Assembly: GCA_028699085.1 (NCBI GenBank)
Contig: JAQVVF010000001.1
Location: 103,883-167,882 of the forward strand
Origin: Patescibacteria group bacterium
GTDB taxonomy: Bacteria > Patescibacteriota > JABMPQ01 > JAQVVF01
Direction of reading: 5' to 3'
DNA length: 64,000 bases
This document shows, in pieces, positions 8,583 through 29,368 of the stretch (its first letter is position 1; each line of letters opens with the position of its first letter). The position numbers were made by a program, and so were the translations under genes. A model generated the notes under the pieces. That model was not told the DNA's origin, searched no databases, and saw only the letters and a list, made by a program, of their open reading frames with translations.

Positions 8583-8583
8583 A

Positions 8584-8712
8584 TTCTAAACTTCAAATAC
8601 TAAATTCTAAATAAACTCAAAATTCAAATTTTCAAAAAACCTCCGAGTTTTGAAAATTAATTTTAAGTTTATTTAGAATTTAGAGTTTAGAATTTAGGAT
8701 TTTAGTTCTGTG
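8584..8712. repeat. long AT-rich imperfect palindrome (~125 nt, arms ~55 nt) after L,D-transpeptidase gene
   Basis: Left ctaaattctaaataaactcaaaattcaaattttcaaaa mirrors right ttttgaaaattaattttaagtttatttagaatttag around central aacctccgag. Confidence 0.5.
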
Positions 8713-8839: not shown

Positions 8840-8983
8840 ATGGAAGCATATTGTGTAAAATGTAAAGCTAAACAAGAAATGGCAGACGCAAAAGAAATCA
8901 AAATGAAAAATGGCAGACCAGCAACAACTGGAAAATGCCCAAAATGTGGAACTAAAATGTTCAGAATCGGAAAAGCTAAATAA
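8840..8983 (+). CDS. small zinc-ribbon protein (47 aa), not in ORF track because <60 aa
   Basis: AGGAGAAAACA RBS then ATG at 8840; MEAYCVKCKAKQEMADAKEIKMKNGRPATTGKCPKCGTKMFRIGKAK with CxxC...CxxC; terminator hairpin agagcgcaaagctctttttt directly downstream. Confidence 0.6.
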   Translation: MEAYCVKCKAKQEMADAKEIKMKNGRPATTGKCPKCGTKMFRIGKAK

Positions 8984-9032: not shown

Positions 9033-9177
9033 TTGGCTAAAAAACACACGTAGGCGAGAAACCGATTTCTCGCCTACGTGCTTCTGCAATATTCTGTGTT
9101 CGCTTTTTCATTTTTTCGGGTACGTAAAATATTGTATTTAATAATTTGTGTTGCTATAATCAAATTAGCAAAACATT

Positions 9178-10850: not shown

Positions 10851-10919
10851 ACACTGAATATTAATAATTGAATATTAAAACGTTTACTAAGACAATATTC
10901 AATATTTAATATTCAGTTA
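10851..10919. repeat. AATATT-unit inverted repeat hairpin (23-bp arms) at 3' flank of GT4 gene; shares a 25-nt identical segment with the 12086-12156 element
   Basis: ctgaatattaataattgaatatt / aatattcaatatttaatattcag around loop aaaacgtttactaagaca; ATATTCAATATTTAATATTCAGT also at 12130-12154. Confidence 0.55.
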
Positions 10920-12085: not shown

Positions 12086-12156
12086 TGAATTGAATATTGA
12101 ATATTTAATATTGGCATCGAGAGTAGGATAATATTCAATATTTAATATTCAGTAAC
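12086..12156. repeat. AATATT-unit inverted repeat hairpin at 5' flank of GT4 gene (direct repeat of the 10851-10919 element)
   Basis: tgaatattgaatatttaatatt ... aatattcaatatttaatattcagt. Confidence 0.55.
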
Positions 12157-12343
12157 TTTAGTTTATCAAAAAAGCCAAAAAAGCACAAATAATCGTCAAA
12201 AAATGGCTTATTCAAGCCTAGTTGTATAAATAATGTTGACAAATATTTTATATTGTGCTAATCTTTCATGATACATTCCTCAGGTTCTGGAAGCGGGATC
12301 GGACCCTACAACTGGAGAGAAACAAGGTAAGGAGGGCAAGGAA

Positions 12344-13384
12344 ATGAAGCGCAAGATCAACTGGATGCTGATGGTGGTGGTTTTCTATTTCTTCAACATC
12401 TTCAACCCGATCTACATGTTCATGGACGATGACGAGGGCCAGATCGCCTACGCGCAGGATGGATCCGAGCAGAAGGTCTGGACGATGCTGGATGCGGATC
12501 TGCAGGGCACCGGCGTGAGCTGGAAGCCCGCGTGGACCGAACAGCTCCAGGCTGCCAAGGCGATGATGGAAGCGAACCAGTTCTCCTGTCTCGAAGTGAG
12601 TGGTGTCGAGGACATCACCGGGTTCAACGTCGGCAACACGGAACTCCGTGCGGCCGGTGGTGAAGACCCGCTTCGGGCAGTGAGGGCGAGGGCGCGTGCC
12701 AGCTTCGTCATGAACAAGCTGATGGAGGTGGGTGTGGCGGGAAGCAAGATCCGTGAAGGTACCATGACGACCCGGGCCAACGAAGGCCAGAGGGGCGCCG
12801 TGATCCGCCTGATCGAGGACTGCATCCCCAAGCCGCCGGTCCAGTGCTGGGACAGCAACGAGAACTACAAGTGTGATGGTGATGAGGACGTGAACAAGGA
12901 CTCGGAGTGCAACGTGAAGGACTGCCAGGGGAACGACGGGACGGCCAAGGTCGAGATCAAGTACGACCTCGTCGGCCAGTACGTCAAGTACCTCGGAAGC
13001 CCCGAACGTGATCCGTTCACCGGAATCCTGCTCCGTGCCAACTTCCCCATCAGCGACAAGCTGACGTTGGGGCTGGCTGCGGAGTACGGCAAGGCGAACG
13101 AGATCGGTGCTGCCGGGTTCGAGCTCGACGCTGAGTGGGATTGGTTCCGCTGGATCAAACCGCGGATCAGTCTCATCGGCCGGGCCTACAACCTGACGAC
13201 GCACCTGTACTTCAAGCGTGGAGAAGTTGGTGGCGGCGTGGGCTTCAGCGGAGAACTCGTGGAGAATGAAAGCTGGTCCATCATCTATCAGGTGGTGGGC
13301 GAGTGGAAGTACGACATCGAGTACACCCGCTGGGAGTGGGAGGCGGTCAAGTCCGCGACGGGCGCCATCGGCGTCCGGTTCTGA
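12344..13384 (+). CDS. secreted OmpA-like-domain protein with C-terminal beta-strand-rich, OMP-like tail (paralogue P1, high-GC copy)
   Basis: AAGGAGGG RBS; hydrophobic N-terminus; CLEVSGVEDITGFNVGNTELRAAGGEDPLRAVRARARASFVMNKLMEVGVAGSKIREG resembles an OmpA_C peptidoglycan-binding domain; C-terminus ...GAIGVRF. Clear paralogy with the 15083 and 16072 proteins supports this strand over the antisense 12266..13444 ORF. Confidence 0.7.
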   Translation: MKRKINWMLMVVVFYFFNIFNPIYMFMDDDEGQIAYAQDGSEQKVWTMLDADLQGTGVSWKPAWTEQLQAAKAMMEANQFSCLEVSGVEDITGFNVGNTELRAAGGEDPLRAVRARARASFVMNKLMEVGVAGSKIREGTMTTRANEGQRGAVIRLIEDCIPKPPVQCWDSNENYKCDGDEDVNKDSECNVKDCQGNDGTAKVEIKYDLVGQYVKYLGSPERDPFTGILLRANFPISDKLTLGLAAEYGKANEIGAAGFELDAEWDWFRWIKPRISLIGRAYNLTTHLYFKRGEVGGGVGFSGELVENESWSIIYQVVGEWKYDIEYTRWEWEAVKSATGAIGVRF

Positions 13385-13470
13385 CGGAGAGTCCCGGGCG
13401 TCCGGCTTCGCAAGGAGTCGGGCGCCCGGTTCCGGGTGAGTCAACGGCAGAAGAGTGAGGAGGTAGAGAG

Positions 13471-14199
13471 ATGCGGAACTTCAAGCTGTGCATCATGGTG
13501 GCGATCCTGGCGATGGTGGTCGGATGTGCACTCGAGCCCCAGCCCAGCAACGGCAACGGCGGCAACGAGGGCGAAGGAGAAGGCGAGGGCGTCGAGGGTG
13601 AAGGCGAGGGCGAGGGTGAGCACCCCTGCGTGGCCGGCGAGTGCGAGGACGGGTTCGTCTGCATGGACGGGACCTGCGTGCCGGATGGGCAGGAGGGCGA
13701 GGGCGAGACGGACGGCGGCGTGGACGGCGGTGAAGGGTGCGAGTGCGACGGCGGCTGCGAGGGCGAGGGCGGCAACGAGTGCACCGAAGGGCAGCGGCAG
13801 TGCATCGAAAACGCGTGGCAGATCTGCGAGAGCAACGGCTACTGGGGTGTCCTGAACGACTGCCTCGAGGGCCAGATCTGCAACAACGGCAGCTGCGTGC
13901 CCGAGCCCGTGACCAACCCCTACACCTGCGCGGTCTGGATCAACGAGCGGGGAGAGCTGTGCGGTGACATCAACGGCCTGTCGTCGTGGACCTTCGGGTG
14001 CATGTACGAAGGGGTCGAACCGGTCTGCGAGCTGAACACCTACAACGGTGCATGCGTGCAGATCCCGGACGATGTCGTCAACACGGCATGGCCTCGGACG
14101 GAAGATGGCGGATGGCTGACGGTCGCGGGCTGCGAAGCGCGCGATGGTCTGGTCATCACCATCGACCCGGCAGGTGGTCACTTCCTGACGCTCCCCTAG
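13471..14199 (+). CDS. cysteine-rich lipoprotein with (GE)n low-complexity linker and EGF-like Cys modules
   Basis: GAGGAGG RBS; signal peptide plus lipobox MVVGC; GNEGEGEGEGVEGEGEGEGE tract; multiple CxxGxC motifs. Confidence 0.6.
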   Translation: MRNFKLCIMVAILAMVVGCALEPQPSNGNGGNEGEGEGEGVEGEGEGEGEHPCVAGECEDGFVCMDGTCVPDGQEGEGETDGGVDGGEGCECDGGCEGEGGNECTEGQRQCIENAWQICESNGYWGVLNDCLEGQICNNGSCVPEPVTNPYTCAVWINERGELCGDINGLSSWTFGCMYEGVEPVCELNTYNGACVQIPDDVVNTAWPRTEDGGWLTVAGCEARDGLVITIDPAGGHFLTLP

Positions 14200-14484
14200 A
14201 AACTTCAGTTCCCACCCGACAAACGCAAGTGCGTCGGGTGCGGCATTCTCTCCAACAATTCCAGTTCTTTCAGCGTACGTTCCTTCAAGAGTTCACTATT
14301 CAGTGGGCTCTTTTTTTATCCAAAAAAATATTGCATTTGAAACTTGGTTTTTGCTAAACCTTAGTTTCAAAGAGTGAGTATCAAATAGCCCTAAAGACAG
14401 AACACAATTACCAAGGCTAAAATATTGACAAATTTAGGCATTATAGTATAATACAAAGTCAAAACAGCACCTTTTGTACCTTCA

Positions 14485-14568
14485 GCCCGGATGGCGAAAG
14501 GGCAGCCGCAGGGGACTTAAAATCCTCCGTCGCAAGACATGCGGGTTCGAATCCCGCTCCGGGCACCA
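14485..14568 (+). tRNA. tRNA-Leu (anticodon UAA), type II with long variable arm
   Basis: Acceptor GCCCGGA/TCCGGGC, 3-bp D-stem with GG in loop, anticodon stem GGGGA/TCCTC with loop CTTAAAA (U33, TAA, A37), 13-nt variable arm with GTC/GAC stem, T-arm GCGGG-TTCGAAT-CCCGC, encoded CCA. Confidence 0.85.
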
Positions 14569-14597
14569 AAACATATCTCACGATATGTTTTTTTATT
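14569..14597 (+). terminator. rho-independent terminator after tRNA-Leu
   Basis: aacatatc-tcac-gatatgtt plus T7. Confidence 0.65.
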
Positions 14598-14609
14598 GTC
14601 AGAATCTAC

Positions 14610-14677
14610 GGGTTCGCCCCGCCATGAAGGCGGGGCGCCCTGGCCTTGTGCCAGGGCGAATCCCGCTCCGGGCACCA
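14610..14677 (+). repeat. 68-nt GC-rich tRNA-3'-end-derived element, copy 1 (GGGTTCG, two GC hairpins, then CGAATCCCGCTCCGGGCACCA)
   Basis: Last 21 nt identical to the 3' end of tRNA-Leu at 14548-14568; internal hairpins CCCCGCC-ATGAA-GGCGGGG and CCCTGGC-CTTGT-GCCAGGG; followed by its own terminator hairpin aacagtata-tta-ctatactgtttttt. Confidence 0.7.
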
Positions 14678-14725
14678 CAAAACAGTATATTACTATACTG
14701 TTTTTTCTTTAGATAAAAATGCTAA

Positions 14726-14793
14726 GGGTTCGCCCCGCCATGAAGGCGGGGCGCCCTGGCCTTGTGCCAGGGCGAATCCCGCTCCGGGCACCA
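14726..14793 (+). repeat. 68-nt GC-rich tRNA-3'-end-derived element, copy 2 (identical to copy 1)
   Basis: Identical 68 nt; followed by terminator hairpin agcagtatct...agatactgcttttttt. Confidence 0.7.
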
Positions 14794-15082
14794 TTAGCAG
14801 TTATCTTCAAGATACTGCTTTTTTTATCGCAAAAATAAAAAATTGTTATTTCAAAAGCTAATTTTCGAATATATGAAAATCGCAAAAAGCTTAAGAACAA
14901 TTTATTTGTTCAAGATAATTTATAAATACAATTATTATTTTGACAAATAGAATAACATTTGTGCGATTTGTGGCCGAAGGCATTCGCAAGATTAGTATGA
15001 AACACATTGACAAAGCAAAAAATAATGTTAAACTATCAAGTACAGAAAATCGCGCACTTTCCATTTCCAAAACGGAGGCATC

Positions 15083-15892
15083 ATGAAGACGATAGCAAGA
15101 TTCGTTGCTTTCACGTTGTTCATTATTCCTTTACAAAGTCTTGGCAAAGAGTGGCATGTACTTGATGACCATCAGGGCAAACTTTTGAATTGGCATAAAG
15201 AAGATTATTACACTCTTGAGGATATTATGCTTACGATTGCATCTAGACAGAAATCTTGTCTTGAAATTAGTGGCGCTGAAGAAGTAATTTCACTTCCATT
15301 CAATTCTCGTGATCAGGCAATTGGAAAATCAAAGTCATTTCGGGTAGCTTTAGCTAAGGTACGATCTGAATTTGTAATGGAAAAACTTTATGAAATAGGA
15401 GTGCCAAAAGCTAGGATCAGAGAAGGCCCCATTCTTAATCAGTCTGGTTATGGTGCTTATATTAAATTGATTGAAGAATGTTATCAGGAAGAGAATAAAA
15501 CAAAGTTGCCTGGCAAAGAAAAGATAGAAGATAGTAATAATGACAGCTATGATTTTCTTGGTCAGGGATCTAGCGATCAATATTTTGGCATTCATTTACG
15601 GAAAAGAATGTTGCTAGATGATGGCTTTGTTTTGAGGATTGGCGTAGGCATTGGCAAGACTCAAGACTATATTCTGACTCTAGAAGCAAATCTTGAATAT
15701 TTAATTGATCCAAATTTTAGTCCCTTTATTGCTACCTTTGTCAGAGATTATAATTTGTTAGAAAATGAAAAGATTGGCCTTGGGATTGGATTTACAACCA
15801 TAATTAATCAAACTAAAAGCTCAAGTATTTTTCTCGAAGTTGAATTGCAAGATTCAGTTGATGTTGAGGCAAGTATCGGAATTCGTTTTTAG
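15083..15892 (+). CDS. secreted OmpA-like-domain protein with C-terminal beta-rich OMP-like tail (paralogue P2, low-GC copy)
   Basis: GGAGG RBS, signal peptide; CLEISGAEEVISLPFNSRDQAIGKSKSFRVALAKVRSEFVMEKLYEIGVPKARIREG; alternating hydrophobic strands; terminal ...ASIGIRF. Confidence 0.7.
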   Translation: MKTIARFVAFTLFIIPLQSLGKEWHVLDDHQGKLLNWHKEDYYTLEDIMLTIASRQKSCLEISGAEEVISLPFNSRDQAIGKSKSFRVALAKVRSEFVMEKLYEIGVPKARIREGPILNQSGYGAYIKLIEECYQEENKTKLPGKEKIEDSNNDSYDFLGQGSSDQYFGIHLRKRMLLDDGFVLRIGVGIGKTQDYILTLEANLEYLIDPNFSPFIATFVRDYNLLENEKIGLGIGFTTIINQTKSSSIFLEVELQDSVDVEASIGIRF

Positions 15893-16071
15893 AACGCACA
15901 TTAGAGTTGCATTTGCAGCTCTTTTTTATTGTTAGCTATTTGACAATAATTTAGAAAAATAGTATTATCAATGGACCAAGTTTTAGATTGTACTCAAAAA
16001 TTTATTGACCAAGGGGACGGGCGCAGGTGCATATTGACAGCAGAGGAAGGCCAACCAGCACAGGAGGCCAT

Positions 16072-17331
16072 ATGAAGCGCTGTAGAGGTATATTGACCGT
16101 TCTTACTCTATGCCTTTTTGCCAGAGCTTCACATGCAGAGCAAGTTCAATGTCCATTCTCCGAAGTACCCGTATTTACAGCAGGCAAGATGACATGTACG
16201 CTAGCCAGCAAGACTGGATTCGTTATTGTCTTTGCACCTGAAAATTATTTGATTTTCATCAATACTCATCAAGTCAAGGAAGTTCCATACGATCGGCAAA
16301 ATGAAAGCTACAAGATTAATCTTTTGCCTGGCAACTATCAGATCAATATCATGAATGGCAGTGATATCTTCAAAGAAGAATCTATAAAAATTGAAGTCGG
16401 AAAGGGTATTTCAATCATCTTTGCATCACCAAAACTATTGTTCAAGACACCTAACGTTACTTATGCCCAGATTCGGCCAGAGCAGGTGATACAGAAGTGG
16501 GAATTGCTCAATGCATCGCTGAAGGGTATCGATTGTGTTTGGAAAGACGAATGGAAGCCCATATTGGCAAAGGTAGCAGAGGCAGTAAAAAAGGCAGAAC
16601 CAACTTCTTGCCTTGATATTGCCGGAGTTGATGATATTCATGATTTTGTGGGCATTAGCTATCCTGAAATAAGAGCAGCTGGCAGTCAGGAAGCTTTCCA
16701 TGCAATTCGAGCGCAAGGTCGAGCCAGCTTGATTATGTATCGTCTGGAAATGGATTATAATGTTCCACCACAGAGATTACGTGAAGGCAAGATTGAGATC
16801 AAAGGCGAAAAGGGTGTTAGAGGTGTGCGGATCACTCTCGTAAAGGATTGCGCCCATTTGCAAACAAGCCCTAGAAGTCTACCAAGTCAGGCAAGTCGCG
16901 TTGCAGATTCTTCAAGGTTTTCGTCAACTAGTATCAAGAAAAAGCGTCGTTGGGAAGCAATGTATGATGCGAGCTTTATCTTTGGTGTCGGGTACCATAC
17001 ATATCTTGGTAGAAAAGTATTCCAAACTCATCAAGCAGAATTCAAGGCTGATTTTAATTCAGTCTTGGTATATGCTGGAATGAGACTTGGAACAGCAGAT
17101 TACCAAGATTTTATGCCAGGAGTGAAGCTATCTCTTGGTTACAATTTTCAATATCTTAAGCCTCGGATCGGCATTTTAATTACTGCTTATCCAGCTCAAA
17201 GTATAATTGAATATAGCTTGACAACAGGCATTAATCTTTTGTTGCCGATTGAAAATCTATTCATCGGACCTCATTACGAAGTTAGCACTTTAGGACAACA
17301 TGGTTATCTAGCACTTGGTTACGAACTTTAG
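16072..17331 (+). CDS. secreted OmpA-like-domain protein with C-terminal beta-rich tail (paralogue P3, intermediate GC); start moved to ATG 16072 with AGGAGG RBS
   Basis: Signal peptide MKRCRGILTVLTLCLFARASHA; CLDIAGVDDIHDFVGISYPEIRAAGSQEAFHAIRAQGRASLIMYRLEMDYNVPPQRLREG; C-terminal alternating beta-strand pattern. Confidence 0.65.
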   Translation: MKRCRGILTVLTLCLFARASHAEQVQCPFSEVPVFTAGKMTCTLASKTGFVIVFAPENYLIFINTHQVKEVPYDRQNESYKINLLPGNYQINIMNGSDIFKEESIKIEVGKGISIIFASPKLLFKTPNVTYAQIRPEQVIQKWELLNASLKGIDCVWKDEWKPILAKVAEAVKKAEPTSCLDIAGVDDIHDFVGISYPEIRAAGSQEAFHAIRAQGRASLIMYRLEMDYNVPPQRLREGKIEIKGEKGVRGVRITLVKDCAHLQTSPRSLPSQASRVADSSRFSSTSIKKKRRWEAMYDASFIFGVGYHTYLGRKVFQTHQAEFKADFNSVLVYAGMRLGTADYQDFMPGVKLSLGYNFQYLKPRIGILITAYPAQSIIEYSLTTGINLLLPIENLFIGPHYEVSTLGQHGYLALGYEL

Positions 17332-17390
17332 TTTGCTCACATAGTTGAGCTTTTTTTTATTCAAAAAATATGCTAAAGTTAAAATATTAG

Positions 17391-17450
17391 ATAATAGCTG
17401 ACAGCTAATAGTTTTTCTATTAGCAATTAGCTATTAGCTTATAGTATAAG
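17391..17450 (+). promoter_or_regulatory. conserved intergenic leader motif, copy 1 (AGATAATAG...ACAGCT.ATAGT.TTT.CTATTAGC.ATTAGCTATTAGCTT) abutting start codon
   Basis: About 80% identical to 26901-26950; both end 1-2 nt before an ATG. Confidence 0.5.
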
Positions 17451-17451
17451 C

Positions 17452-18897
17452 ATGATAAAAAACAAACTTCAAAATCTTTCTAAACCGCTAATTTATACCA
17501 CGTTATGTTTTTTTTACGTCAGCATATTTATTTTGCCTTCTTTTTTTATTCCATTTAATATTTATTTATATCTTTTTGGAATTGGATTTGCCTCATTATT
17601 TATTTTAAAAGTTCCAGAAGTTGGTTTGTACACAATTGTTCTTTGTACAATGATTTACGAAAGATTTTTCACCTTACAGCCAATTATCTTAGACGTTAAT
17701 ATTTACAAGATTTATCCAATTGATGTTTTATTAGCAGTTACTTTCATTAGTTTTTTGATTCATCATTTTGGCAATTTAGGAAGTAAAGAAATAAAATATA
17801 CTAGATTAGAAAAAGCAACCTTTATTTTTTTTCTAACATTAATAGTAGCTCTAGTTTATAGCATTATTAAAAATCCTGACAAAGAATTAGCTTTAGCAAC
17901 ATTCAAGAACTATAGCTATCTATTAATTTTGTTCTTAACAATATTTATCATCAGAACAAAAGTCCAGTTCAAAAGAATCATCAAAGTTTTTCTTGCAGGC
18001 GGGATTATTCTAATTGGTTTTATTATTTACGGCTTAGCAACGGGAAATGGTCTCTGGAGTGAATTTACTCCAGGAACACGATTCTTAGCTCAAACTCACA
18101 CCTATTATCTTTTATTGCCAGTATTCATTGCGATTGTTTTTTTAACATACGGTAAAGAAATTTACGGCCATATCAAGACTCAAGCAATTATTTTAGTTCA
18201 ATCAGTTGGCATTGTTGCAGGTATGCATCGTCACCTTTGGCTTGGCTTTCTATCTGGCTTGGCAACAATTTTTCTTTTATCAAACAAAGAAAAAAGAAAA
18301 GTCGCTTTGAAAAATATTTTAGGGATCCTGCTAGTTGTCTTAATTGTTTTTTCAATAGTTATCTGGATTACAGCCATGTTAAATACAGATATAAATATTA
18401 AGGCGTCTTCGTATACACAAAGATTTATCGAAAGAGTTCAATCTTTATTTACTTTAAAATCTAGCAACATTGAAGAAGCAGCAGGATGGCGTTTGAAAGC
18501 CTGGCAAGAAGGATTAGTACAATATTCAAAAAATCCAATACTGGGTATCGGTTTTGGCAAAATGCTTAATGTCGAATTCAAAGGCTTTGTGTCAACTGTA
18601 GAAATGCGTGCTTTGCATAATGAGCTATTGGGAGTCTTAATCCAAACTGGAATCATCGGCCTTATTCCATTTCTATTCATAAATTATTATCTAATAAAAT
18701 ATTTTATTAAGCTTTATAAAGCTAAAATTTCAGAACAACCTGAATTAATTGCCTTATTTGCGTTCTATGTTGCAACCTGCGTTGGTTTGCTTTTCTCCTT
18801 GTATTTAGTCACAAATATGCTTAATATATTCTATTGGATTGCAATGGGATTGATTGTTAGTTTATATAAAATGTATAAACTAGATCAAATTAAATAG
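17452..18897 (+). CDS. O-antigen ligase/Wzy-like polytopic membrane protein
   Basis: About 12 TM helices plus periplasmic-loop motif MRALHNELLGVLIQTGIIGL resembling the Wzy_C (O-antigen ligase) domain. Confidence 0.6.
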   Translation: MIKNKLQNLSKPLIYTTLCFFYVSIFILPSFFIPFNIYLYLFGIGFASLFILKVPEVGLYTIVLCTMIYERFFTLQPIILDVNIYKIYPIDVLLAVTFISFLIHHFGNLGSKEIKYTRLEKATFIFFLTLIVALVYSIIKNPDKELALATFKNYSYLLILFLTIFIIRTKVQFKRIIKVFLAGGIILIGFIIYGLATGNGLWSEFTPGTRFLAQTHTYYLLLPVFIAIVFLTYGKEIYGHIKTQAIILVQSVGIVAGMHRHLWLGFLSGLATIFLLSNKEKRKVALKNILGILLVVLIVFSIVIWITAMLNTDINIKASSYTQRFIERVQSLFTLKSSNIEEAAGWRLKAWQEGLVQYSKNPILGIGFGKMLNVEFKGFVSTVEMRALHNELLGVLIQTGIIGLIPFLFINYYLIKYFIKLYKAKISEQPELIALFAFYVATCVGLLFSLYLVTNMLNIFYWIAMGLIVSLYKMYKLDQIK

Positions 18898-18904
18898 TTT
18901 ATTA

Positions 18905-18954
18905 ATTGCGGCCTGGCCTTCAGGCCAGGACCCAGGCTAAAGCCTGGGCCACAA
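18905..18954 (+). repeat. GC-rich Y-shaped structured intergenic element, copy 2
   Basis: TTGCGGCC...GGCCACAA outer stem; hairpins TGGCC-TTCA-GGCCA and CAGGC-TAAA-GCCTG; compensatory changes relative to the 899-952 copy keep the pairing. Confidence 0.55.
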
Positions 18955-18965
18955 TACAAAAAAGT

Positions 18966-20180
18966 ATGAAGATAATCCAAGCAAACAAATTCTACTATTT
19001 GAAAGGCGGAGCAGAACGCTATTATTTTAATTTAATAAAATTGCTCGAATCAAAAGGACATGAAGTTATTCCTTTTGCAATGCATGATGAAAAAAATTAT
19101 TCAAGCAAATATTCAAAATATTTCGTTAGTAATGTAGATTTCGAAAAGTCGGGGCATAATTTAAAAAAGGCCTGGCGAGTCTTATATTCTTTTGAAGCTA
19201 AAAAAAAGTTTGAGCAATTAATCAAAGATACAAATCCAGACATTATTCATATTCATAATATTTATCATCAAATCTCGCCATCAATTTTGACTGTTGCCAA
19301 AAAACATAAGATCCCAGTTGTTGAGACTCTCCATGATTTTAAGCTAATATGTCCAAATTATACTCTATATTCAAAAAAAGAGCTTTGTGAGCAGTGCAAA
19401 AAATATCGTTATTACAAATGTACTTTTAGAAAATGCATTAAGAACAAATTTTGGCAAAGCGCTCTTGCATCAAAAGAAATGTATTTTCATAAATTAATTA
19501 GAATATATGAAAATAATGTTAATTTATTTTTAGCGCCAAGTAAATTTGTTTATAATAAAATTTTAGAATTTGGCATCATAACAGCAGAACAAATAACTAT
19601 TTTGCCCGAATTCGTTTATACAAAAAATAATAATCTTCAACAACAAAATCAGGAAAATTACGTTTTGTATTTTGGCAGATTAATAAAAGAAAAGGGAATC
19701 AAGACCTTGATTTCAGCAATGAAAAAAGTTAACAATCTAGAGTTGCATATTGCCGGATCAGGTCCAGATGAGCAAGAATTCAAAGACCTAGTTAAAAAAG
19801 AAAACTTAAATAATATCAAGTTTTTGGGCTTTTTAGATCAAGAAAAACTTAAACAAGAAATTAGAAATTCTTTATTTGTAATTCATCCATCAGAAGTCTA
19901 TGAGACTTTTGGTTTATCAATCCTAGAAAACTACGCTTTAGCAAAGACAGTTATAGCCTCAAATTTAGGAGCATTGCCAGAAATTGTTAAAGATAAGCAA
20001 ACTGGCTTATTATTCAAAGCAGGCGATAGTGATGATCTCACAGACAAAATTAATTATTTAGCGAATAACCAAAATTTAGTTATAAAAATGGGCGATAATG
20101 CAAAAAAAATAGTTGAACAAAAATACAGTTCAGAAGTGCATTATCAACAACTGATCAAAATTTACGAAGAATTAAAATAG
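18966..20180 (+). CDS. GT4-family glycosyltransferase
   Basis: MKIIQANKFYYLKGGAERYY start, C-terminal FGLSILENYALAKTVIASNLGALPEIVKDKQTGLLF GT4 motif; track ORF start 18906 overlaps the structured element and is unlikely. Confidence 0.8.
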   Translation: MKIIQANKFYYLKGGAERYYFNLIKLLESKGHEVIPFAMHDEKNYSSKYSKYFVSNVDFEKSGHNLKKAWRVLYSFEAKKKFEQLIKDTNPDIIHIHNIYHQISPSILTVAKKHKIPVVETLHDFKLICPNYTLYSKKELCEQCKKYRYYKCTFRKCIKNKFWQSALASKEMYFHKLIRIYENNVNLFLAPSKFVYNKILEFGIITAEQITILPEFVYTKNNNLQQQNQENYVLYFGRLIKEKGIKTLISAMKKVNNLELHIAGSGPDEQEFKDLVKKENLNNIKFLGFLDQEKLKQEIRNSLFVIHPSEVYETFGLSILENYALAKTVIASNLGALPEIVKDKQTGLLFKAGDSDDLTDKINYLANNQNLVIKMGDNAKKIVEQKYSSEVHYQQLIKIYEELK

Positions 20181-20235
20181 ATATTACGACATGGTTTTAT
20201 AGTATATTAGACCCCTACGAATTTATTTCAAGCAA

Positions 20236-21796: not shown

Positions 21797-22110
21797 ATTA
21801 TTTCCTAAAATATAATTTTAAGCTGATTTTAAGCTTGATATATTAAAGTTATATTTCAGGAGATAAACTCCAAAATCGAGTATATCTCCTTAAAGCAGGT
21901 GTGGCGCTTCTATGTCACCCTGCTTTTATATTACACTAAATTTTCAAAATAAAAATATTGAAAAATAATCTAGCCCTGTTGATAAATATGTTTTATACTT
22001 TAAACAAGCTAAAACATGACTGAATAAGTTATAAGAAAATAAAATTTGGTTAATAGTAACATTAGCGGTTTATTCAACTGTTAACTGTCAACTGTTAACT
22101 GTCAACTGTT

Positions 22111-22590
22111 ATGATAAACGGAGTGAGAATCAAACAAATAAAAATCTGGAAAGACCAACCAGACCTAGACCAGAAAAAAGTAAAGCCAGGACATTTAATG
22201 GAAATTTTGAGAGCTGATGAAAAATTGCTAACCAAGTTTGGACAAACAACTTTTACAGTTGCTCATCCAGGCACAATCAAAGCTTTTCATTGGCACAAAA
22301 AACAGGACGACCTTTGGTTTTTTGCGCAAGGCAAAGCAACGATTGTTTTGCATGATCTACGCAAAAAATCTAAAACTTTTGGCGAGACTCAAATAATTGA
22401 ATGCAATGCCGAAAAAGATCCAAAGCTAGTTTTGATTCCAATCGGCGTTGCTCATGGCTATAAAGCCCAAGGCAAAAAACCAGTTTTACTTTTTTACCAT
22501 ACAACAAGACCATACAATCCTAAAAAACCAGACGAACAAAGAATTCCACATAACGATCCAAAAATTGGGTTCAATTGGAAAAAATTATGA
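22111..22590 (+). CDS. cupin-fold sugar-nucleotide epimerase/ketoisomerase (RmlC/FdtA-WxcM-like)
   Basis: KAFHWHKKQDDLWFFAQGKATIVLHDLRKKSKTFGE resembles the RGxHAHK...G cupin motif of dTDP-sugar isomerases/epimerases. Confidence 0.5.
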   Translation: MINGVRIKQIKIWKDQPDLDQKKVKPGHLMEILRADEKLLTKFGQTTFTVAHPGTIKAFHWHKKQDDLWFFAQGKATIVLHDLRKKSKTFGETQIIECNAEKDPKLVLIPIGVAHGYKAQGKKPVLLFYHTTRPYNPKKPDEQRIPHNDPKIGFNWKKL

Positions 22591-23524: not shown

Positions 23525-24541
23525 ATGAAAATTTTAGTTACCGGAGGACTAGGTTTTATCGGCAGTAACTTTATCCGCTACATGCTAGCAAAATATTCTG
23601 CCTATCAAATTGTCAATCTAGACAAAGTTACTTATGCTGGTAATTTTGAAAATTTAGCTGGCATTGATAAAGATCCACGCTATCAATTTTTTAAAGGAGA
23701 CATTGCAGATAGCAAATTAGTTAATAGTTTAATTTCAGTACAAAAACCTGATGCAATCATTAATTTTGCAGCTGAAACTCATGTCGATCGCTCGATCATG
23801 AATCCAGGGGATTTTATTAATACTGATGTTTTTGGCACTCACATTTTACTTAATGCAGTTAAAGATCATAATGTAAAACGTTATATTCAAATTTCAACTG
23901 ATGAAGTTTACGGCGATTTTGATAATGGCGGATTTGCCAAAGAAACATCACCTTTGCGACCGTCATCTCCTTATGCTGCCTCAAAAGCTGGTGGCGATTT
24001 ACAAGTTCTTGCTTTCAGAAGAACATACAATTTACCAGTTTTGATTACGCGTTGCACCAATAATTATGGACCTTATCAATATCCAGAAAAAATTATTCCA
24101 TTATTTATCACTAATTTATTAGAAAGTAAAACAATTCCAGTCTATGGTGATGGTCAACAAATTCGCGACTGGTTGCACGTTGATGATCATTGTTCTGCAA
24201 TAGATTTAGTTTTGCACAAAGGAGTTGACGGCGAGATTTATAATATTGGTGCGAATCAAAATCCAGAAATCACTAATTTAGAATTAACAAAACGAATTAT
24301 TACAGCTTGTGGTAAAGATGAAAGATCAATTGAATACGTCAAGGATCGAGCTGGGCATGACCGCCGATATGCTGTTGATGTTGCTAAAATTAAGACTGAA
24401 TTAGGTTGGGAACCAAAATATAATTTTGATTCTGGAATTGCTCAAACGATTTCATGGTACAAAAACAATTTAGAATGGTGGAAAAAAATCAAGACAGGCG
24501 AATATTTGAATTACTATAAACAGCAATATGTCCAAAGATAG
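23525..24541 (+). CDS. rfbB: dTDP-glucose 4,6-dehydratase
   Basis: MKILVTGGLGFIGSNFIRYML Rossmann, ISTDEVYGD, YAASKAGGDLQV (YxxxK), ~338 aa. Confidence 0.88.
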   Translation: MKILVTGGLGFIGSNFIRYMLAKYSAYQIVNLDKVTYAGNFENLAGIDKDPRYQFFKGDIADSKLVNSLISVQKPDAIINFAAETHVDRSIMNPGDFINTDVFGTHILLNAVKDHNVKRYIQISTDEVYGDFDNGGFAKETSPLRPSSPYAASKAGGDLQVLAFRRTYNLPVLITRCTNNYGPYQYPEKIIPLFITNLLESKTIPVYGDGQQIRDWLHVDDHCSAIDLVLHKGVDGEIYNIGANQNPEITNLELTKRIITACGKDERSIEYVKDRAGHDRRYAVDVAKIKTELGWEPKYNFDSGIAQTISWYKNNLEWWKKIKTGEYLNYYKQQYVQR

Positions 24542-25064
24542 GATAATCAGAAAAGTATCATCTAAAGAAATATTTTCTTGCAAATGGTATAAGCTCAAAC
24601 ATGATAAAATTGTTTTGCCAAATGGGAAAAAAGGTGACTACTTTTTTGTTGACAAAGTTGGATCAGTTATGATTATTGCAATTGAGGATAATAAGATAAT
24701 TTTAACAAAACAATATCGTTATATTTCTAAGAAAAATAGTTTAGAATTACCTGCTGGAGGTTTTGACAATGGCAATCCAAAAAAGCATGCCCAAAGAGAA
24801 TTTGAAGAAGAAACAGGCTATAAAGCAAAAAACTGGAAAAAGATAGGAGCATTTTTTCCGTATAATGGTATTTCATCAGAAGTGAGTCATGTTTTTTTAG
24901 CTAAAAATCTTATTAAGACAAAAGCTTGTCCGGACGAAACAGAATTTATCGATATAATAAAAAAGCCAATTAAAGAAGTCTACAAAATGGCAGAGCAAAA
25001 TAAAATTACCGATGGCATGACACTTGTAGCATTACTATTAGCAAAAAAATATTTAAAAATATAA
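24528..25064 (+). CDS. NUDIX hydrolase
   Basis: Nudix box GGFDNGNPKKHAQREFEEETGY. Confidence 0.75.
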   Translation: MSKDRIIRKVSSKEIFSCKWYKLKHDKIVLPNGKKGDYFFVDKVGSVMIIAIEDNKIILTKQYRYISKKNSLELPAGGFDNGNPKKHAQREFEEETGYKAKNWKKIGAFFPYNGISSEVSHVFLAKNLIKTKACPDETEFIDIIKKPIKEVYKMAEQNKITDGMTLVALLLAKKYLKI

Positions 25065-25065
25065 T

Positions 25066-25896
25066 ATGAAAATCCTAATCACTGGAGCAAGAGGGATGCT
25101 TGGCCAAGATCTTTGTTCTTTATTAGAAAAAGAACATGAATTAATTAAGTATGACCGTGAAGAACTAGATATTACAAATGGAAAGATGGTTAACAAAATT
25201 GTTGCCAAATTAAATCCAGATGCAATTATCAATTGTGCTGCATTTACTGATGTCGATGGTTGTGAAGAAAAAAATAAAAAAGCTCTAGCTCGCAAAGTCA
25301 ATGGAACTGGTCCAGGTAATTTAGCCAAAATAAGTCAAAAATTAAAAATTCCATTTTTTCATTATAGCACTGACTATATTTTTAACGGTCTAAAAAAAGA
25401 TGGTTATCGTGAAAGTTATAGCAAGATTGATCCAATTAATGCTTACGGTCAAACAAAAGCTCTGGGAGAAAAATTAATCAAGAAAAACTGCAAGAAATAT
25501 TATATTCTAAGAACTGCTTGGCTCTATGGTAAAAGAGGCAAAAATTTTGTTGATACTATGTTGCAATTAGCCAAAGAACATGATACTTTAAAGGTAGTAA
25601 ACGATCAGCATGGTAAACCGACATATACTCTTGATTTAGCTAAAAGAACAAAAGAAATTCTCGACAAAAAACTTCCTTTTGGTATCTATCATGTTACAAA
25701 TGAAGGTCAGGCTACTTGGTATGATTTCGCTAAAGAAGCTTTTAAAATCAAAGGTATTAAAGTAAAAGTTTTGCCATGTACAACTGCTGAATTTCCACGG
25801 CCTGCAAAAAGACCAGAATATTCTGCATTGATTAATACTAAAATGAAAGCAATGAGAAGCTGGAAAAAAGCTTTAGCCGAATATCTAGCAAGCTAA
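25066..25896 (+). CDS. rfbD: dTDP-4-dehydrorhamnose reductase
   Basis: MKILITGARGMLGQDL, STDYIFNG, YGQTKALGE (YxxxK); RmlD-length 276 aa. Confidence 0.8.
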   Translation: MKILITGARGMLGQDLCSLLEKEHELIKYDREELDITNGKMVNKIVAKLNPDAIINCAAFTDVDGCEEKNKKALARKVNGTGPGNLAKISQKLKIPFFHYSTDYIFNGLKKDGYRESYSKIDPINAYGQTKALGEKLIKKNCKKYYILRTAWLYGKRGKNFVDTMLQLAKEHDTLKVVNDQHGKPTYTLDLAKRTKEILDKKLPFGIYHVTNEGQATWYDFAKEAFKIKGIKVKVLPCTTAEFPRPAKRPEYSALINTKMKAMRSWKKALAEYLAS

Positions 25897-26010
25897 TTTT
25901 CAATTATCAATAATCAATTTACAACAAATTTTCAATTCACAATTTTCAATGGGCATTAGTCTATTGGAAATTGATTGAAAATTGGAAATTGTAAATTGAA
26001 AATTAAAATC

Positions 26011-26889
26011 ATGAAAGGCATTATTTTAGCAGGAGGATCAGGAACAAGATTATATCCGCTTACACAGAGCATCTCAAAGCAGATCATGCCGATTTACGAC
26101 AAGCCAATGATTTATTACCCTTTGTCAATTTTAATGTTGTCTGGAATTCGCGAAATTTTAATTATCTCAACTCCAAGAGATATTAGTACTTACAAAGATC
26201 TATTAGGCAATGGAAAAAAGTTTGGCTTAAAAATTTCATATGCAGTTCAGGCCAAACCTGATGGATTAGCCCAAGCATTTATAATTGGTGAAAAATTTAT
26301 TGGTAAAGATAGCGTTTGTTTAATTTTAGGCGATAATGTTTTTTACGGTCATGGTTTCAAGACAATGCTGAAAAAAGCAGCTAGAATTAAAAAAGGTGCA
26401 GTTATCTTTGGATATTATGTTAATGATCCAGAAAGATATGGCATTGCTGAATTTGATAAAAAAGGCAGAGTTTCCAGTATCGAAGAGAAGCCAGAACATC
26501 CAAAATCGAATTATGCAATTACGGGGTTATATTTTTATGATAATAGCGTAGTCAAAAAAGCCAAAGCATTAAAACCATCACCAAGAGGCGAATTAGAAAT
26601 TACCGATTTGAATAGGCTATATCTTAATGAAAAAAAATTAAGACTAGAAATGTTAGGTCGTGGATTTGCATGGCTGGATACAGGCACTCACGAAAGTCTT
26701 TTAGACGCTTCAAACTTTATTCAAACAATTGAAAAGAGGCAAGGATTAAAAGTTTCCTGTCTTGAAGAAATCGCCTTTAAAAATGGCTACATTAATAAAA
26801 AACAATTACTAAAATTAGCCGAGCCTCTTAGCAAGAATCAGTACGGACAGTATTTGATAAAAATTGCCAACGAAAAAAATTTATTTTAA
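26011..26889 (+). CDS. rfbA: glucose-1-phosphate thymidylyltransferase
   Basis: [18 protein letters not shown] nucleotidyltransferase motif; start moved from 25975 to ATG 26011. Confidence 0.88.
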
Positions 26890-26900
26890 AATAAGCTAGC

Positions 26901-26950
26901 AGATAATAGTTAACAGCTGATAGTATTTTACTATTAGCTATTAGCTTTAA
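26901..26950 (+). promoter_or_regulatory. conserved intergenic leader motif, copy 2
   Basis: agataatagttaacagctgatagtattttactattagctattagctttaatt immediately before ATG 26953; cf. 17391-17450. Confidence 0.5.
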
Positions 26951-26952
26951 TT

Positions 26953-28320: not shown

Positions 28321-28789
28321 TAAGGTTGAGTGCAAGTCTTTATTTGGCAAAAAGTGTTTTATAGCTAAAAATAAAATAAGAAATAGGGTCTCTGTTTATG
28401 CTGTCATAATTGATAAGAATAAAATTTTACTGACCAATTCAAAAAATACCAAGAAGTTATTTTTACCAGGCGGCGAGATTGAAAGTCATGAAACAATTGA
28501 GCAAGCATTGAAGAGAGAAGTTAAAGAAGAGACCGGAACGAAAATAAAAATAAAAGCTTTTTTAAATTTTAAAGAAGTATTTTTTTATTATGATCCACGC
28601 AATGAAGCTTATCATAATTTTTCTTTTTTCTATCTTTGTGAGCCCTTAACAAAAAAGCTAACAGAAAAACATCAAGTTGAATTCGATGAATCTGAAAAAC
28701 CAGAATGGAAAAATTTATCAGAATTAAAGAAGAAAGATTTACAGCCTCCAACTTATGAAGTTATTAAAAAGTACTTAGGCACAGAATAA
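28292..28789 (+). CDS. NUDIX hydrolase
   Basis: Nudix box GGEIESHETIEQALKREVKEETG. Confidence 0.7.
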   Translation: MKGEKRSKYNKVECKSLFGKKCFIAKNKIRNRVSVYAVIIDKNKILLTNSKNTKKLFLPGGEIESHETIEQALKREVKEETGTKIKIKAFLNFKEVFFYYDPRNEAYHNFSFFYLCEPLTKKLTEKHQVEFDESEKPEWKNLSELKKKDLQPPTYEVIKKYLGTE

Positions 28790-28792
28790 TTT

Positions 28793-29368
28793 ATGATCAA
28801 AAAAAACTTTAATAGTACGATGAATCAAATTTGGATTCTAGCAAAACCTTATTTAGAGAAAGCAACCAAAAAAGATATGGTCGTCCACACGAAAGGAGTT
28901 CTTCTAGCAATGACAATGTTACTAAAAAAAGAAAATGGTGATAAAGTAATATTAATACCTTCAGCCATTCTGCATGATGTTGGTTTTTCTAAAGTTCCAA
29001 AGAAATTGCAGACAAGTATAGATGAGGAAGATCGTAAGAAGTCATTAAAACTCCATTTAGAATACGCACCTAAAATTATTGAAGAGATTATGACAAAAGT
29101 TGGTTATAGCAAAGATGACATAAATAAAATTATTGAAATTGTTATAGCTCATAAATTTCAAGATCCACAAGAATTAGATAAGCAATTATTGATTGACGCT
29201 GATACCTTAGCTGACTTGTTTAAAGAACAATTTTACGTTAATGCAAAAGACTATAATAAGATACCGCAAGAATTTTATAACATTAGAAAAGATAACAAAT
29301 TTTATACAAAAACAGCAAAAATAATTTTTAATACAGAATTGAAAAATAGAGCTAAAGAAATATTTTAA
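28793..29368 (+). CDS. HD-domain phosphohydrolase
   Basis: AILHDVG ... D pattern of the HD superfamily. Confidence 0.55.
   Translation: MIKKNFNSTMNQIWILAKPYLEKATKKDMVVHTKGVLLAMTMLLKKENGDKVILIPSAILHDVGFSKVPKKLQTSIDEEDRKKSLKLHLEYAPKIIEEIMTKVGYSKDDINKIIEIVIAHKFQDPQELDKQLLIDADTLADLFKEQFYVNAKDYNKIPQEFYNIRKDNKFYTKTAKIIFNTELKNRAKEIF

Follow-up and report, generated by a model that had tools for sequence, protein, structure and literature searches.

Two intergenic sites of a Patescibacteria group bacterium, referred to here as s1 (17385-17451) and s2 (26897-26952), have about 50 nt in common, and it is considered probable that they are paralogous copies of a lineage-specific, AT-rich palindromic leader repeat built of heptamers (CTATTAG / CTAATAG), and not an envelope operator or a substitute for the Shine-Dalgarno sequence. 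Both copies lie on the forward strand of the window (the whole 64-kb stretch of DNA that was analysed), and the repeat appears to take a fixed orientation in the slot between a promoter-like -10 element and a start codon. The CTATTAG family belongs to a broader class of elements, either hairpins or direct arrays with heptamer periodicity, that occupy many spacers and are frequent in this Patescibacteria lineage. In the original prediction a common segment before two surface-related genes was described and was suggested to be the binding site of a dedicated regulator of envelope genes, or for a shared 5' UTR structure standing in for a Shine-Dalgarno sequence. That observation was confirmed in part, as the common segment stood while the distance of its units from the ATG and a third, weaker copy before ugd did not, and the interpretation was partly supported.

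The common segment is not a product of chance composition. The 24-nt left arm reads AGATAATAG(Y)T(R)ACAGCT(R)ATAGT in both copies (17389-17412 in s1 and 26901-26924 in s2), and with up to three mismatches allowed this pattern has 2 matches in the window versus 0 in 100 shuffles. Both copies also contain CTATTAGC followed by ATTAGCT units; this 8-mer occurs 7 times in the window, where 1.98 occurrences are expected, and five of the seven fall in s1 and s2. Single-sequence nhmmer searches recovered each copy from the other with E-values around 1e-3 (s1 to s2, E=1.2e-3; s2 to s1, E=5.7e-4), and the alignment scored higher in the same orientation than in the reverse one. Idiosyncrasies which do not belong to the repeat (AGATAATAG, ACAGCT) indicate that s1 and s2 share descent. 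Within the 64-kb window the family has only these two copies, and an nhmmer profile of s1 and s2 found no further copies of this type in approximately 100 kb of syntenic Patescibacteria relatives. A public set of genome contigs, from which the genome of the window itself is absent, was scanned with the pattern ACAGCTRATAGTN{3,7}CTATTAGC and yielded 14 single matches in unrelated phyla, all ordinary terminator-like hairpins or cyanobacterial heptamer arrays and no further family members. The left arm in the form GATAATAGNNNACAGCTNATAG had 13 matches in public metagenome contigs, none of them with the right arm, which is chance level. The ATTAGCT units, formerly placed 1-2 nt from the ATG, in fact end 12 nt (s1) and 6 nt (s2) before it. 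The supposed weaker relative before ugd (31749-31770, forward strand) is a short 8-bp hairpin whose membership in the family is unsupported: its fold (dG -7.1, z -0.29) is equalled by 73 of 200 shuffles and it has no nhmmer match.

The main feature of both sites, absent from the original prediction, is a long imperfect inverted repeat composed of 7-nt units (CTATTAG). The arms of s1 (17379-17411 and 17417-17449) are 33 nt long and 79% complementary, those of s2 (26903-26925 and 26929-26951) are 23 nt long and 78% complementary, and TRF reported CTATTAG arrays of 3.3 units at 17417-17439 in s1 and 2.3 units at 26931-26946 in s2. RNA folding gave -25.6 kcal/mol (z -4.09) for s1 and -19.5 kcal/mol (z -3.37) for s2. 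In the predicted structure of s1 the stem 17392-17401/17427-17436 continues as 17404-17411/17417-17424 and closes with the loop TTTTT, and the main hairpin is followed by a small one (17437-17451) ending at the ATG of the Wzy-like gene. In s2 the stem 26908-26913/26941-26946 continues as 26915-26925/26929-26939 with the loop TTT, after which come TTAATT and the ATG. In the sense RNA the three differences between the two left arms all still pair, via G.U, and s1 and s2 fold more stably on this strand than on the antisense one. The elements have 25-31% GC, a length of 45-65 nt and no GTAG head; GC-rich REP-like hairpins with a GTAG start coexist in these genomes as a separate group. Rfam 15 at the gathering threshold detected only tRNA-Leu and nothing at s1 or s2, and its E-value scans gave nothing beyond generic hairpins (miRNA precursors) scoring 13-20 bits, versus cut-offs of 35-300 bits.

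The surroundings of the two copies point to a position inside the leader. Upstream of s1 there is a terminator-like hairpin with a T-run which belongs to the preceding gene (17335-17358, forward strand; given by the terminator scan as stem 17335-17350 plus T8), and after it, within 17335-17379, the conserved block TTATTCAAAAAATATGCTAAAGT with an extended -10 element (TG at 17371-2, TAAAGT at 17374-9). This Wzy promoter block (T-run, TTATTCAAAAAATATGnTAnnnT) lies just upstream of the s1 hairpin and is kept in five genomes (the window, L032, L036, L037 and L040); transcription would start at about 17385-17387, at the foot of s1. Before s2, which begins 8-19 nt past the rmlA stop codon, a promoter-like TTGCCA-17-TAAAAT is found inside the 3' end of rmlA (26864-26892, forward strand), a consensus match only, at 10 of 12 positions, whose -35 and spacing are also present in L029. 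A start from it would fall near 26899, at the 5' edge of s2. A shared 5' UTR structure, as proposed originally, thus holds up in its leader position and predicted fold, given the promoter-like matches upstream and the pairing kept by G.U. The elements were also considered as promoters of leaderless mRNAs, with -10-like TATAGT/TATTAT a few nt before the ATG, and this was rejected on account of poor spacing.

The gene downstream of s1 (17452-18897, forward strand) encodes a membrane protein of 481 aa of the O-antigen ligase/Wzy_C family (Pfam PF04932, E 6.5e-16). The gene downstream of s2 (26953-28320, forward strand) encodes P455, a secreted Patescibacteria protein of 455 aa which carries a signal peptide and matches no Pfam family; its start codon is backed by orthologues at 100% query coverage, and other CPR proteins have the homologous region joined to D-Ala-D-Ala carboxypeptidase or FG-GAP domains. 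Since nearly all genes between 15 and 33 kb of the window are envelope- or sugar-related, any pair of spacers in this region would look surface-related.

Comparison of the orthologous intergenic regions, which had been proposed as a check of the original prediction, gave no sign of conservation. In L029, L032, L034, L036, L037, L038, L039 and L040, relatives whose proteins are 75-93% identical, the corresponding spacers are either without the motif or contain unrelated hairpins in its stead. The rmlA-P455 spacer, which in the window holds the CTATTAG hairpin, measures 15 nt with no hairpin in L029-31, carries an ACGAAT-unit hairpin in L032/33 and a remnant of one in L038, has a GAAACAG-unit hairpin in L039 and contains an extra ORF in L034/35. 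The Wzy leader downstream of the conserved TTATTCAAAAAATATGnTAnnnT block has 66, 13, 18, 33 or 46 nt, depending on the genome. The identity of s1 in L029, L030 and L001 was rejected as a sign of constraint, because around s1 the backbone of these contigs matches that of the window at 100% identity. Slippage is active in the lineage, as an (AT)n tract counts about 23 copies in the window but about 5 in L029, whose backbone is identical otherwise. The element-free spacers in L029 and L032 differ over their whole length, and no target-site duplication is discernible in the AT-rich flanks.

Heptamers are by no means restricted to s1 and s2. Intergenic periodicity at lag 7 and lag 14 reaches z of 5.7 and 5.0 in the window, 5.0 and 3.6 in L032, and 4.4 and 4.5 in L034; there are 11 period-7 arrays of at least three copies in 5.9 kb of spacers versus 4 in 58 kb of coding sequence, and 16 of the 23 longest hairpins in the window are intergenic. 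At least six different heptamer units occur in the spacers of the window, with further units in relatives. A TTTTCAA/TTGAAAA hairpin of about 114 nt (25897-26010, forward strand) fills the rmlD-rmlA spacer, ends 5 nt before the rmlA ATG (26011) and is conserved in L034 with 94% identity versus about 81% for the flanking genes. One hairpin of AATATTC units (12089-12153) stands 11 nt from the start codon of a minus-strand glycosyltransferase gene and has identical arms in L036; a second one (10853-10917) is located directly 3' of the same gene, and the right arms of both are identical over 24 nt. The direct array of five (T/C)AACTGT units (22074-22111, forward strand) runs into the rmlC ATG, and its copy in L032 has equal length and unit number, with point substitutions. 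A long hairpin of TTCTAAA/TTTAGAA units (8583-8705, forward strand; -37.3 kcal/mol, 51 pairs) follows directly past the stop of a YkuD/FG-GAP gene. The ACGAAT sister family has a clear consensus, always points the same way and, in four independent gene contexts, stops 2-10 nt short of the ATG; with a strong promoter about 130 nt further upstream, its element is situated inside the leader.

Taken as a class, these elements appear to abut stop and start codons, to recur as families in each genome, and to be gained, lost or replaced between close relatives. Some members have 94-98% identity versus about 80% in flanking genes, and owing to this strong conservation the class is not merely junk and could have members with a specific function. 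Of 21 members, 12 fold more stably as sense than as antisense RNA, which is no bias, and G.U exceeds A.C mismatches only weakly in the class hairpins (28 versus 18); consequently a role at the DNA level, as a cruciform or a protein site, may still be considered for the class.

The regulatory reading of the original prediction, in which a dimeric or oligomeric regulator would bind TAGCTAT-type half-sites where the palindrome overlaps promoter and leader and co-regulate the Wzy and secreted-protein genes as an envelope regulon, is regarded as very unlikely. Palindromes with repeated half-sites adjoin promoter-like -10 elements, two genes of one polysaccharide locus carry the element in the same orientation, and the lack of a class-wide preference for sense RNA fits a DNA-level site. 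However, a regulon of two sites in 64 kb leaves out the other approximately 15 sugar and envelope genes of the locus, the 100 kb of relatives add none, and the orthologous spacers are devoid of the element or contain unrelated hairpins. Furthermore, a palindrome of about 45-65 bp with a 7-bp period is unlike the usual operators of 14-20 bp, and analogous elements with other units stand at unrelated genes (HIT, BipA 3'). The proposal that the segments replace a Shine-Dalgarno sequence fares little better. The sequence is indeed missing at both genes, but this is not specific to them, because in this tiny-genome Patescibacteria (CPR) bacterium only 9 of the 55 genes of the window have a Shine-Dalgarno-like sequence and 46 do without it, most of them without any repeat as well. 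A translation-initiation module in which ribosomal protein S1, a Csp-like protein or some other RNA-binding protein would attach to the heptamers and bring in ribosomes is therefore judged unlikely, even if the heptamers stop 6-12 nt short of the AUG, the genome is largely devoid of Shine-Dalgarno sequences, orientation is fixed in the CTATTAG and ACGAAT families, and heptamer repeats directly upstream of start codons have a published precedent, the TAACTGA repeats of Beggiatoaceae, for which a ribosome-recruiting role has been put forward (PMC4679880). Orthologues of both genes that are free of the element cope with plain, AT-rich leaders of 13-18 nt, also without Shine-Dalgarno; no single binder fits units that vary by spacer (CTATTAG, AACTGTT, ATTGAAA, AATATTC, ACGAAT), and a stable predicted stem sequestering the repeats would hinder ribosome loading instead of helping it.

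Spread by a transposase as a MITE-like or REP-like mobile element, with the start-codon position being a tolerated insertion of no host function, is doubtful, if conceivable. It would account for presence and absence between close relatives, for sister families with multiple near-identical copies per genome and for the palindrome, which would equal terminal inverted repeats, and REP-like hairpins of the GTAG type do occur in these genomes. It is opposed by the fact that no clean ends or target-site duplications were discernible in the AT-rich flanks, by empty sites that differ over the entire spacer, and by the fact that no transposase was identified; the internal heptamer period and the difference in unit number (3.3 versus 2.3) point to slippage, while strict orientation, a fixed distance from the ATG and the conservation of some members above that of flanking genes argue for selection. 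An intrinsic terminator or attenuator of the upstream gene is scarcely credible. The closeness of s2 to the rmlA stop codon, its entry in a consensus terminator scan (26915-26939, 11 pairs) and cyanobacterial look-alike hairpins at gene 3' ends speak in its favour; nevertheless, s1 follows a separate canonical terminator and a conserved promoter block and has no U-tract behind it, the stems are AT-rich, the counted one having only three G-C pairs, the entry of s2 in the scan is marginal, with the tail ATTAGCTTTA, and ordinary terminators with a GC stem and T-run exist elsewhere in the genome. TIGR arrays, which occur in CPR bacteria, were rejected as well: TIGR-Tas systems have units of about 36 nt, alternating edge and loop repeats of 8-12 nt, 9-nt spacers, 5-15 units and a Nop-domain Tas gene alongside (PMC12045711), whereas s1 and s2 are each a single hairpin with a 7-nt period, no unit array and neighbours such as Wzy and rmlA. 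Integron attC sites and phase-variable tracts were considered and set aside, as the genes form a syntenic core, the rmlC array has the same unit number in L032, s1 is unchanged in L029, L030 and L001 (albeit on the backbone common to them and the window) and no integrase context was seen.

The nearest described counterpart of the leader repeat is the TAACTGA heptamer, which in marine Beggiatoaceae, some Cyanobacteria and Bacteroidetes is repeated directly just before start codons (MacGregor 2015, PMC4679880). The likeness consists in 7-nt units in 2-6 copies, located between genes at the position of a ribosome-binding site a few nt from the start codon, in a host genome poor in Shine-Dalgarno sequences and before genes that follow no functional pattern; the tandem units of s1 and s2, in the same orientation in both and ending 12 and 6 nt before the ATG, correspond to this arrangement, and the rmlC leader array resembles it too. 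In contrast, a single, direct unit dominates genome-wide in the TAACTGA system, where related heptamers are seldom repeated, whereas the window has many units and s1 and s2 are inverted arrays giving a long hairpin; the host here is a Patescibacteria bacterium, and function is putative in both cases. Heptanucleotide long simple sequence repeats (Mrazek et al. 2007, as summarised in PMC4679880) and cyanobacterial STRR-type repeats similarly have period-7 tandem units enriched in non-coding DNA and presumed to originate by slippage, although the units of s1 and s2 are few, 2-3 in each arm. Intergenic hairpins of AGCTAAT/ATTAGCT heptamers in Chlorogloeopsis (L013) and Pseudanabaena (L011) are closely like s1 and s2; homology cannot be claimed, since those loci were picked by the pattern itself. 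REP/BIME elements of Proteobacteria are likewise short imperfect palindromes of spacers that form families in each genome, differ from strain to strain and are believed to influence mRNA stability or termination, but they are about 35 nt long with a GC-rich stem of about 20-40 nt, headed by GTAG, high in copy number and linked to RAYT transposases, in contrast to the AT-rich, heptamer-periodic s1 and s2 without this head.

For the function of the leader repeat, stem-loops at the 5' end of mRNA offer a helpful comparison. Such structures stabilise transcripts in the ermC and aprE leaders of Bacillus and in ompA of E. coli, and s1 and s2 share with them a stable predicted stem-loop a few nt from the putative mRNA 5' end; the hairpin here is much longer and is not conserved in orthologous leaders. 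The repeat may have arisen when a heptamer expanded by slippage and the product was then duplicated, or passed on by gene conversion, from one spacer to another, and according to the consensus promoter matches its transcription would give a stem-loop at the mRNA 5' end or close to it. The effect on the leader is then probably exerted at the RNA level, where most plausibly mRNA stability or processing would be modulated, the stem-loop either guarding against RNases that depend on the 5' end or serving as an RNase III-type substrate, and translation initiation would be dampened. More tentatively, the Patescibacteria of this clade might carry undescribed, oriented, heptamer-built palindromic "leader cassettes", which would repeatedly colonise the slot from a promoter or upstream stop to the start codon, form genome-specific families and in part experience strong purifying selection. 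Such cassettes could then serve as a general control of mRNA processing or of translation initiation in bacteria without Shine-Dalgarno sequences, and s1 and s2 would be two members of one family.

The signals of gene expression in Patescibacteria are almost unknown, as there are few cultures and no genetics. The annotation of an "envelope regulon motif" or of a "Shine-Dalgarno substitute" at this locus was tempting, is unsupported and has been removed. What takes its place is a picture in which, both in the window and in its relatives, most genes have no Shine-Dalgarno sequence and spacers are repeatedly filled by heptamer hairpins of fixed orientation beside start codons; these turn over fast between relatives, yet some of them are far better conserved than neighbouring genes. 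This combination is a concrete lead on leaders, mRNA processing and translation initiation in Patescibacteria, and it provides a link to the unexplained heptamer repeats of Beggiatoaceae and Cyanobacteria.

A block of about 50 nt is common to the spacers before a Wzy_C-family gene (ATG 17452) and the gene of P455, a 455-aa secreted protein (ATG 26953), and its occurrence at two start-codon-proximal sites is, as the original prediction held, real and non-random. The 24-nt left part, AGATAATAG(C/T)T(G/A)ACAGCT(A/G)ATAGT, has exactly two matches in the window at up to 3 mismatches and none in 100 shuffles. The 8-mer CTATTAGC is found 7 times in the window against 1.98 expected, with 5 of the 7 inside the two copies (s1, 17385-17451; s2, 26897-26952). 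The window searched with one copy returned the other (E = 1.2e-3 and 5.7e-4), and their same-orientation alignment scores about twice as high as the reverse one. The main feature of both copies, absent from the first description, is that they are long imperfect inverted repeats: the s1 arms (17379-17411 and 17417-17449) are 33 nt long and 79% complementary around a 5-nt loop, and those of s2 (26903-26925 and 26929-26951) are 23 nt long and 78% complementary. The arms are composed of 7-nt CTATTAG units, 3.3 in s1 and 2.3 in s2 (TRF). As RNA, s1 folds at -25.6 kcal/mol (z -4.09, 0/200 shuffles as good) and s2 at -19.5 kcal/mol (z -3.37, 1/200). ATTAGCT units had been placed within 1-2 nt of the ATG; the last one in fact stops 12 nt short of it in s1 and 6 nt short in s2. 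A third site claimed before ugd (31749-31770) is not significant, having a fold z of -0.29, 73 of 200 shuffles that fold as well and no profile match. The ugd leader carries a weak TGCTAATTAG x2 in the window and an ACGAAT hairpin in the related locus L034; four direct ATCAGCG(T/A) repeats are kept in this leader between two more distant relatives, L032 (13503-13590) and L038 (6524-6596), whose P455 proteins are 84% and 58% identical to that of the window.

Syntenic loci of relatives were obtained via homologues of Wzy and P455, which are annotated 'Patescibacteria group bacterium' for both proteins. Amino-acid identity to the window is 88% (L029-31), 84% (L032/33), 82% (L034/35), 75% (L039) and 58% (L038) for P455, and 85% (L040), 84% (L036, on the same contig as L034) and 65% (L037) for Wzy. 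The rmlA-P455 spacer exists in five states: the CTATTAG hairpin in the window, a hairpin-free 15 nt in L029-31, a 115-nt hairpin of ACGAAT/ATTCGT units in L032/33 (of which L038 keeps a short remnant), in L039 a hairpin of GAAACAG/CTGTTTC units that runs right up to the ATG, and in L034/35 an additional 78-aa ORF with 33 nt behind it. A profile search of the fetched loci found no CTATTAG-type copies in those of relatives; s1 is identical in L029, L030 and L001, which is uninformative because the backbone there is 100% identical to the window over 16.8-17.5 kb and these contigs depart from the window only in recombined blocks (17.5-20.2 and 24.2-30.3 kb). The polysaccharide locus is a mosaic relative to L029, in which 100%-identity blocks alternate with blocks of 79-90% (17500-20200, Wzy and a GT4 gene; 24200-30300, rmlD to the HD/epimerase genes), as is typical where strains exchange surface-glycan genes by recombination.

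Two signals lie upstream of s1: a terminator-like hairpin (17335-17358, with a T8 run) and, after it, the block TTATTCAAAAAATATG-n-TAnnnT, an extended -10 (TGn-TAnnnT; TG 17371-2, TAAAGT 17374-9). The Wzy orthologues of L032, L036, L037 and L040 are preceded by this block as in the window, and what follows it is different in every genome compared: 66 nt with the s1 hairpin in the window (and L029), 13 nt in L032, 18 nt in L040, 33 nt with AATATTC units in L037 and 46 nt with direct AATTTCT heptamers in L036. Since the block is constant and the downstream sequence is not, s1 is seen as an insertion in a variable 5' leader. Transcription would start at about 17385-17387, at the foot of the s1 hairpin. 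Upstream of s2, a TTGCCA-17-TAAAAT match lies within the end of rmlA (26864-26892), and by consensus a start from it would fall at about 26899. The two copies are related, oriented, heptamer-built palindromes in leader positions that are not conserved at orthologous sites; missing or replaced in the orthologous spacers, the element is young and dispensable and is no conserved regulatory site of these genes.

The functional reading in the original prediction is largely not supported. A regulator site for envelope and polysaccharide genes is unlikely, as there are only two sites, both without orthologous conservation, and nearly every gene of the locus is envelope-related anyway. As to a shared 5' UTR structure replacing the Shine-Dalgarno sequence, the predicted hairpin fold stands and the replacement role is not supported. 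Both genes do lack such a sequence, but this is not peculiar to the motif: only 9 of the 55 genes in the window (GC ~30%) have one, so its absence at Wzy and P455 is the rule here and needs no motif to explain it. Moreover, such sequences are absent genome-wide, the orthologues manage with no such element and the heptamers are locked up in the stem, which makes a substitute unlikely. The 9 genes are GC-richer (mean 0.43 vs 0.31). The GC-richer minority (12290-14200, 15083-17331, 35283-39521, 39609-40337, 41216-42193, 43009-44106), peaking at 60-67% at 12344-14199 in a 30% GC genome, has strong GGAGG Shine-Dalgarno sequences and encodes mostly secreted Cys/Gly-rich or MopE/Laminin_G proteins; with the AT-rich majority without Shine-Dalgarno it makes two gene classes. 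GC-rich genes are present in relatives as well (L036 5699-7499) and are therefore not contamination. A terminator role for s1 is also unlikely, because its own terminator and promoter block already precede it; ordinary sigma-70-like promoters and GC-stem + T-run terminators are found elsewhere in this genome.

Among known systems, the closest published parallel is the TAACTGA direct heptamer repeats, whose function is given as unknown (PMC4679880). In Beggiatoaceae, some Cyanobacteria and Bacteroidetes, whose genomes hold few Shine-Dalgarno sequences, these repeats lie a few nucleotides from the start codon. The window differs from them in its many unit types, the inverted, hairpin-forming arrangement and the Patescibacteria host. 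A strikingly similar build is seen in intergenic hairpins from Chlorogloeopsis fritschii PCC 6912 and a Pseudanabaena MAG, whose heptamers are AGCTAAT/ATTAGCT; as these hairpins came from a scan that selected for the pattern, this is resemblance and not homology. REP/BIME and MITEs have the intergenic palindrome character in common with s1 and s2; the two copies lack the GTAG head and the GC-rich stem, and no clean ends of an insertion were seen in the spacer comparison. TIGR arrays were rejected for their different anatomy, no Rfam match was obtained at either copy, and no account of heptamer-periodic hairpins in Patescibacteria came up in a full-text literature search. GTAG-starting GC-rich perfect hairpins (cGTAGGCGAGA...TCTCGCCTACg; GTAGCGACAGGGC...GCCCTGTCGCTAC) do recur in several spacers (window 9047-9080; L029 2030-2060 and 11915-11945; L034 2265, 4690-4718 and 12440-12468) and are candidate REP-like elements.

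The left arms of s1 and s2 differ by three substitutions, each of them in a stem pair, with pairing kept only via G.U on the sense strand (17398-17430 C-G vs U.G; 17400-17428 G.U vs A-U; 17407-17421 A-U vs G.U), and sense RNA folds better than antisense (-24.3 vs -22.6 and -17.5 vs -13.8 kcal/mol). Such retention over three events, with a chance probability of roughly a few per cent, is only suggestive. Taken over 21 class members, sense folding shows no consistent advantage (12/21), and mismatches on the sense strand show a small excess of G.U over A.C (28 vs 18). With three events and no class-wide bias, computation does not separate an RNA hairpin from a DNA palindrome.

Several other features of the locus deserve mention. 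3' of tRNA-Leu(taa), two direct copies of a unit 116 nt apart (14485-14836) repeat the tRNA T-arm and acceptor 3' end (GGGTTCG...GAATCCCGCTCCGGGCACCA) with two GC-rich hairpins in place of the T-loop and a terminator-like hairpin per unit. L036 has such a site at 8075-8180, and L032 (400-548) has one unit, whose second hairpin shows a compensatory change (CCCTGGC..GCCAGGG vs CCCTGCC..GGCAGGG); as Wzy comes directly after it there, the window genes at 15083-17331 look like an insertion at this site next to the tRNA. The GT4-rmlC spacer (21797-22075; L032 5521-5799, L034 4443-4700) is ~93% or more identical, vs ~83-86% in flanking genes. It contains a 24-bp hairpin (21798-21866), a GGAGATAAACTCC motif and a terminator-like hairpin (~21892-21926), gave no Rfam match and may be a 3'UTR element or small RNA. 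Small CxxC...CxxC zinc-ribbon ORFs, easily lost to ORF-length cut-offs, occupy long 'intergenic' regions (3018-3335 and 8841-8981), one being an internally duplicated 105-aa protein and the other matching DUF5679 in the L036 annotation. P455 (26953-28320) matches no Pfam domain. Many CPR proteins carry its homologous region joined to D-Ala-D-Ala carboxypeptidase/beta-lactamase (PF00768, PF13354) or FG-GAP, which suggests a cell-wall-associated module. In the public gene call P0001 the start is placed at an internal Met (439 aa), which would remove the signal peptide.

The two copies belong to a lineage-wide class of heptamer-built elements and are best filed under heptamer simple-sequence or palindromic intergenic repeats. 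Period-7 arrays of at least 3 copies number 11 in 5.9 kb of intergenic vs 4 in 58 kb of coding DNA (TRF, window), the bases of spacers autocorrelate most strongly at lags 7 and 14 (z 5.7/5.0 in the window, 5.0/3.6 in L032, 4.4/4.5 in L034), and 16 of the 23 longest hairpins of the window are intergenic. Members include a TTTTCAA-unit hairpin filling the rmlD-rmlA spacer (25897-26010), AATATTC-unit hairpins with an identical 24-nt arm on both sides of one glycosyltransferase gene (12089-12153 and 10853-10917), TTCTAAA-type elements (8583-8705 and 2767-2906) and a direct (T/C)AACTGT x5 array running into the rmlC ATG. The clearest picture of one such family is given by ACGAAT in the relatives, with the consensus TATGCTAATCTACGAAAATACGAAT - loop - ATTCGCATATTCGTAGATTAGCATAAATTCGTA(t)ATTCGTAT(y)A(y)A(y), which always has the same orientation and stops 2-10 nt short of the ATG; its four independent contexts are a GT4 gene, HIT, ugd and P455. 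Some members of the class have diverged far less than the sequence around them, so that the class is not neutral throughout: the rmlD-rmlA hairpin shares 94% identity with that of L034, a 9-nt loop indel counted (adjacent genes ~81%), and 12062-12160 matches L036 at 98%, the two changes both lying in the loop, with the remainder of the spacer diverged.

For the origin of the arrays, slippage-type expansion by 7-nt units is a reasonable assumption. It agrees with the heptanucleotide-repeat excess seen in bacteria generally, ascribed to polymerase slippage (Mrazek et al. 2007, as summarised in PMC4679880), and with an unstable (AT)n tract, of ~23-25 copies in the window (31558-31618) vs ~5 in L029 (~14300) on an otherwise nearly identical backbone, which indicates active slippage in this population. 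The non-repeat features AGATAATAG and ACAGCT, shared by s1 and s2, argue for descent of one from the other, probably by duplication or gene conversion between spacers. Once transcribed, a stem-loop at or near the 5' end might conceivably alter mRNA stability or processing, or lower initiation at the adjacent AUG. The main interest lies less in the two copies themselves than in the class they reveal: oriented hairpins abutting start codons, with fast turnover and sometimes strong conservation, in a group of hosts whose expression signals are essentially uncharted.
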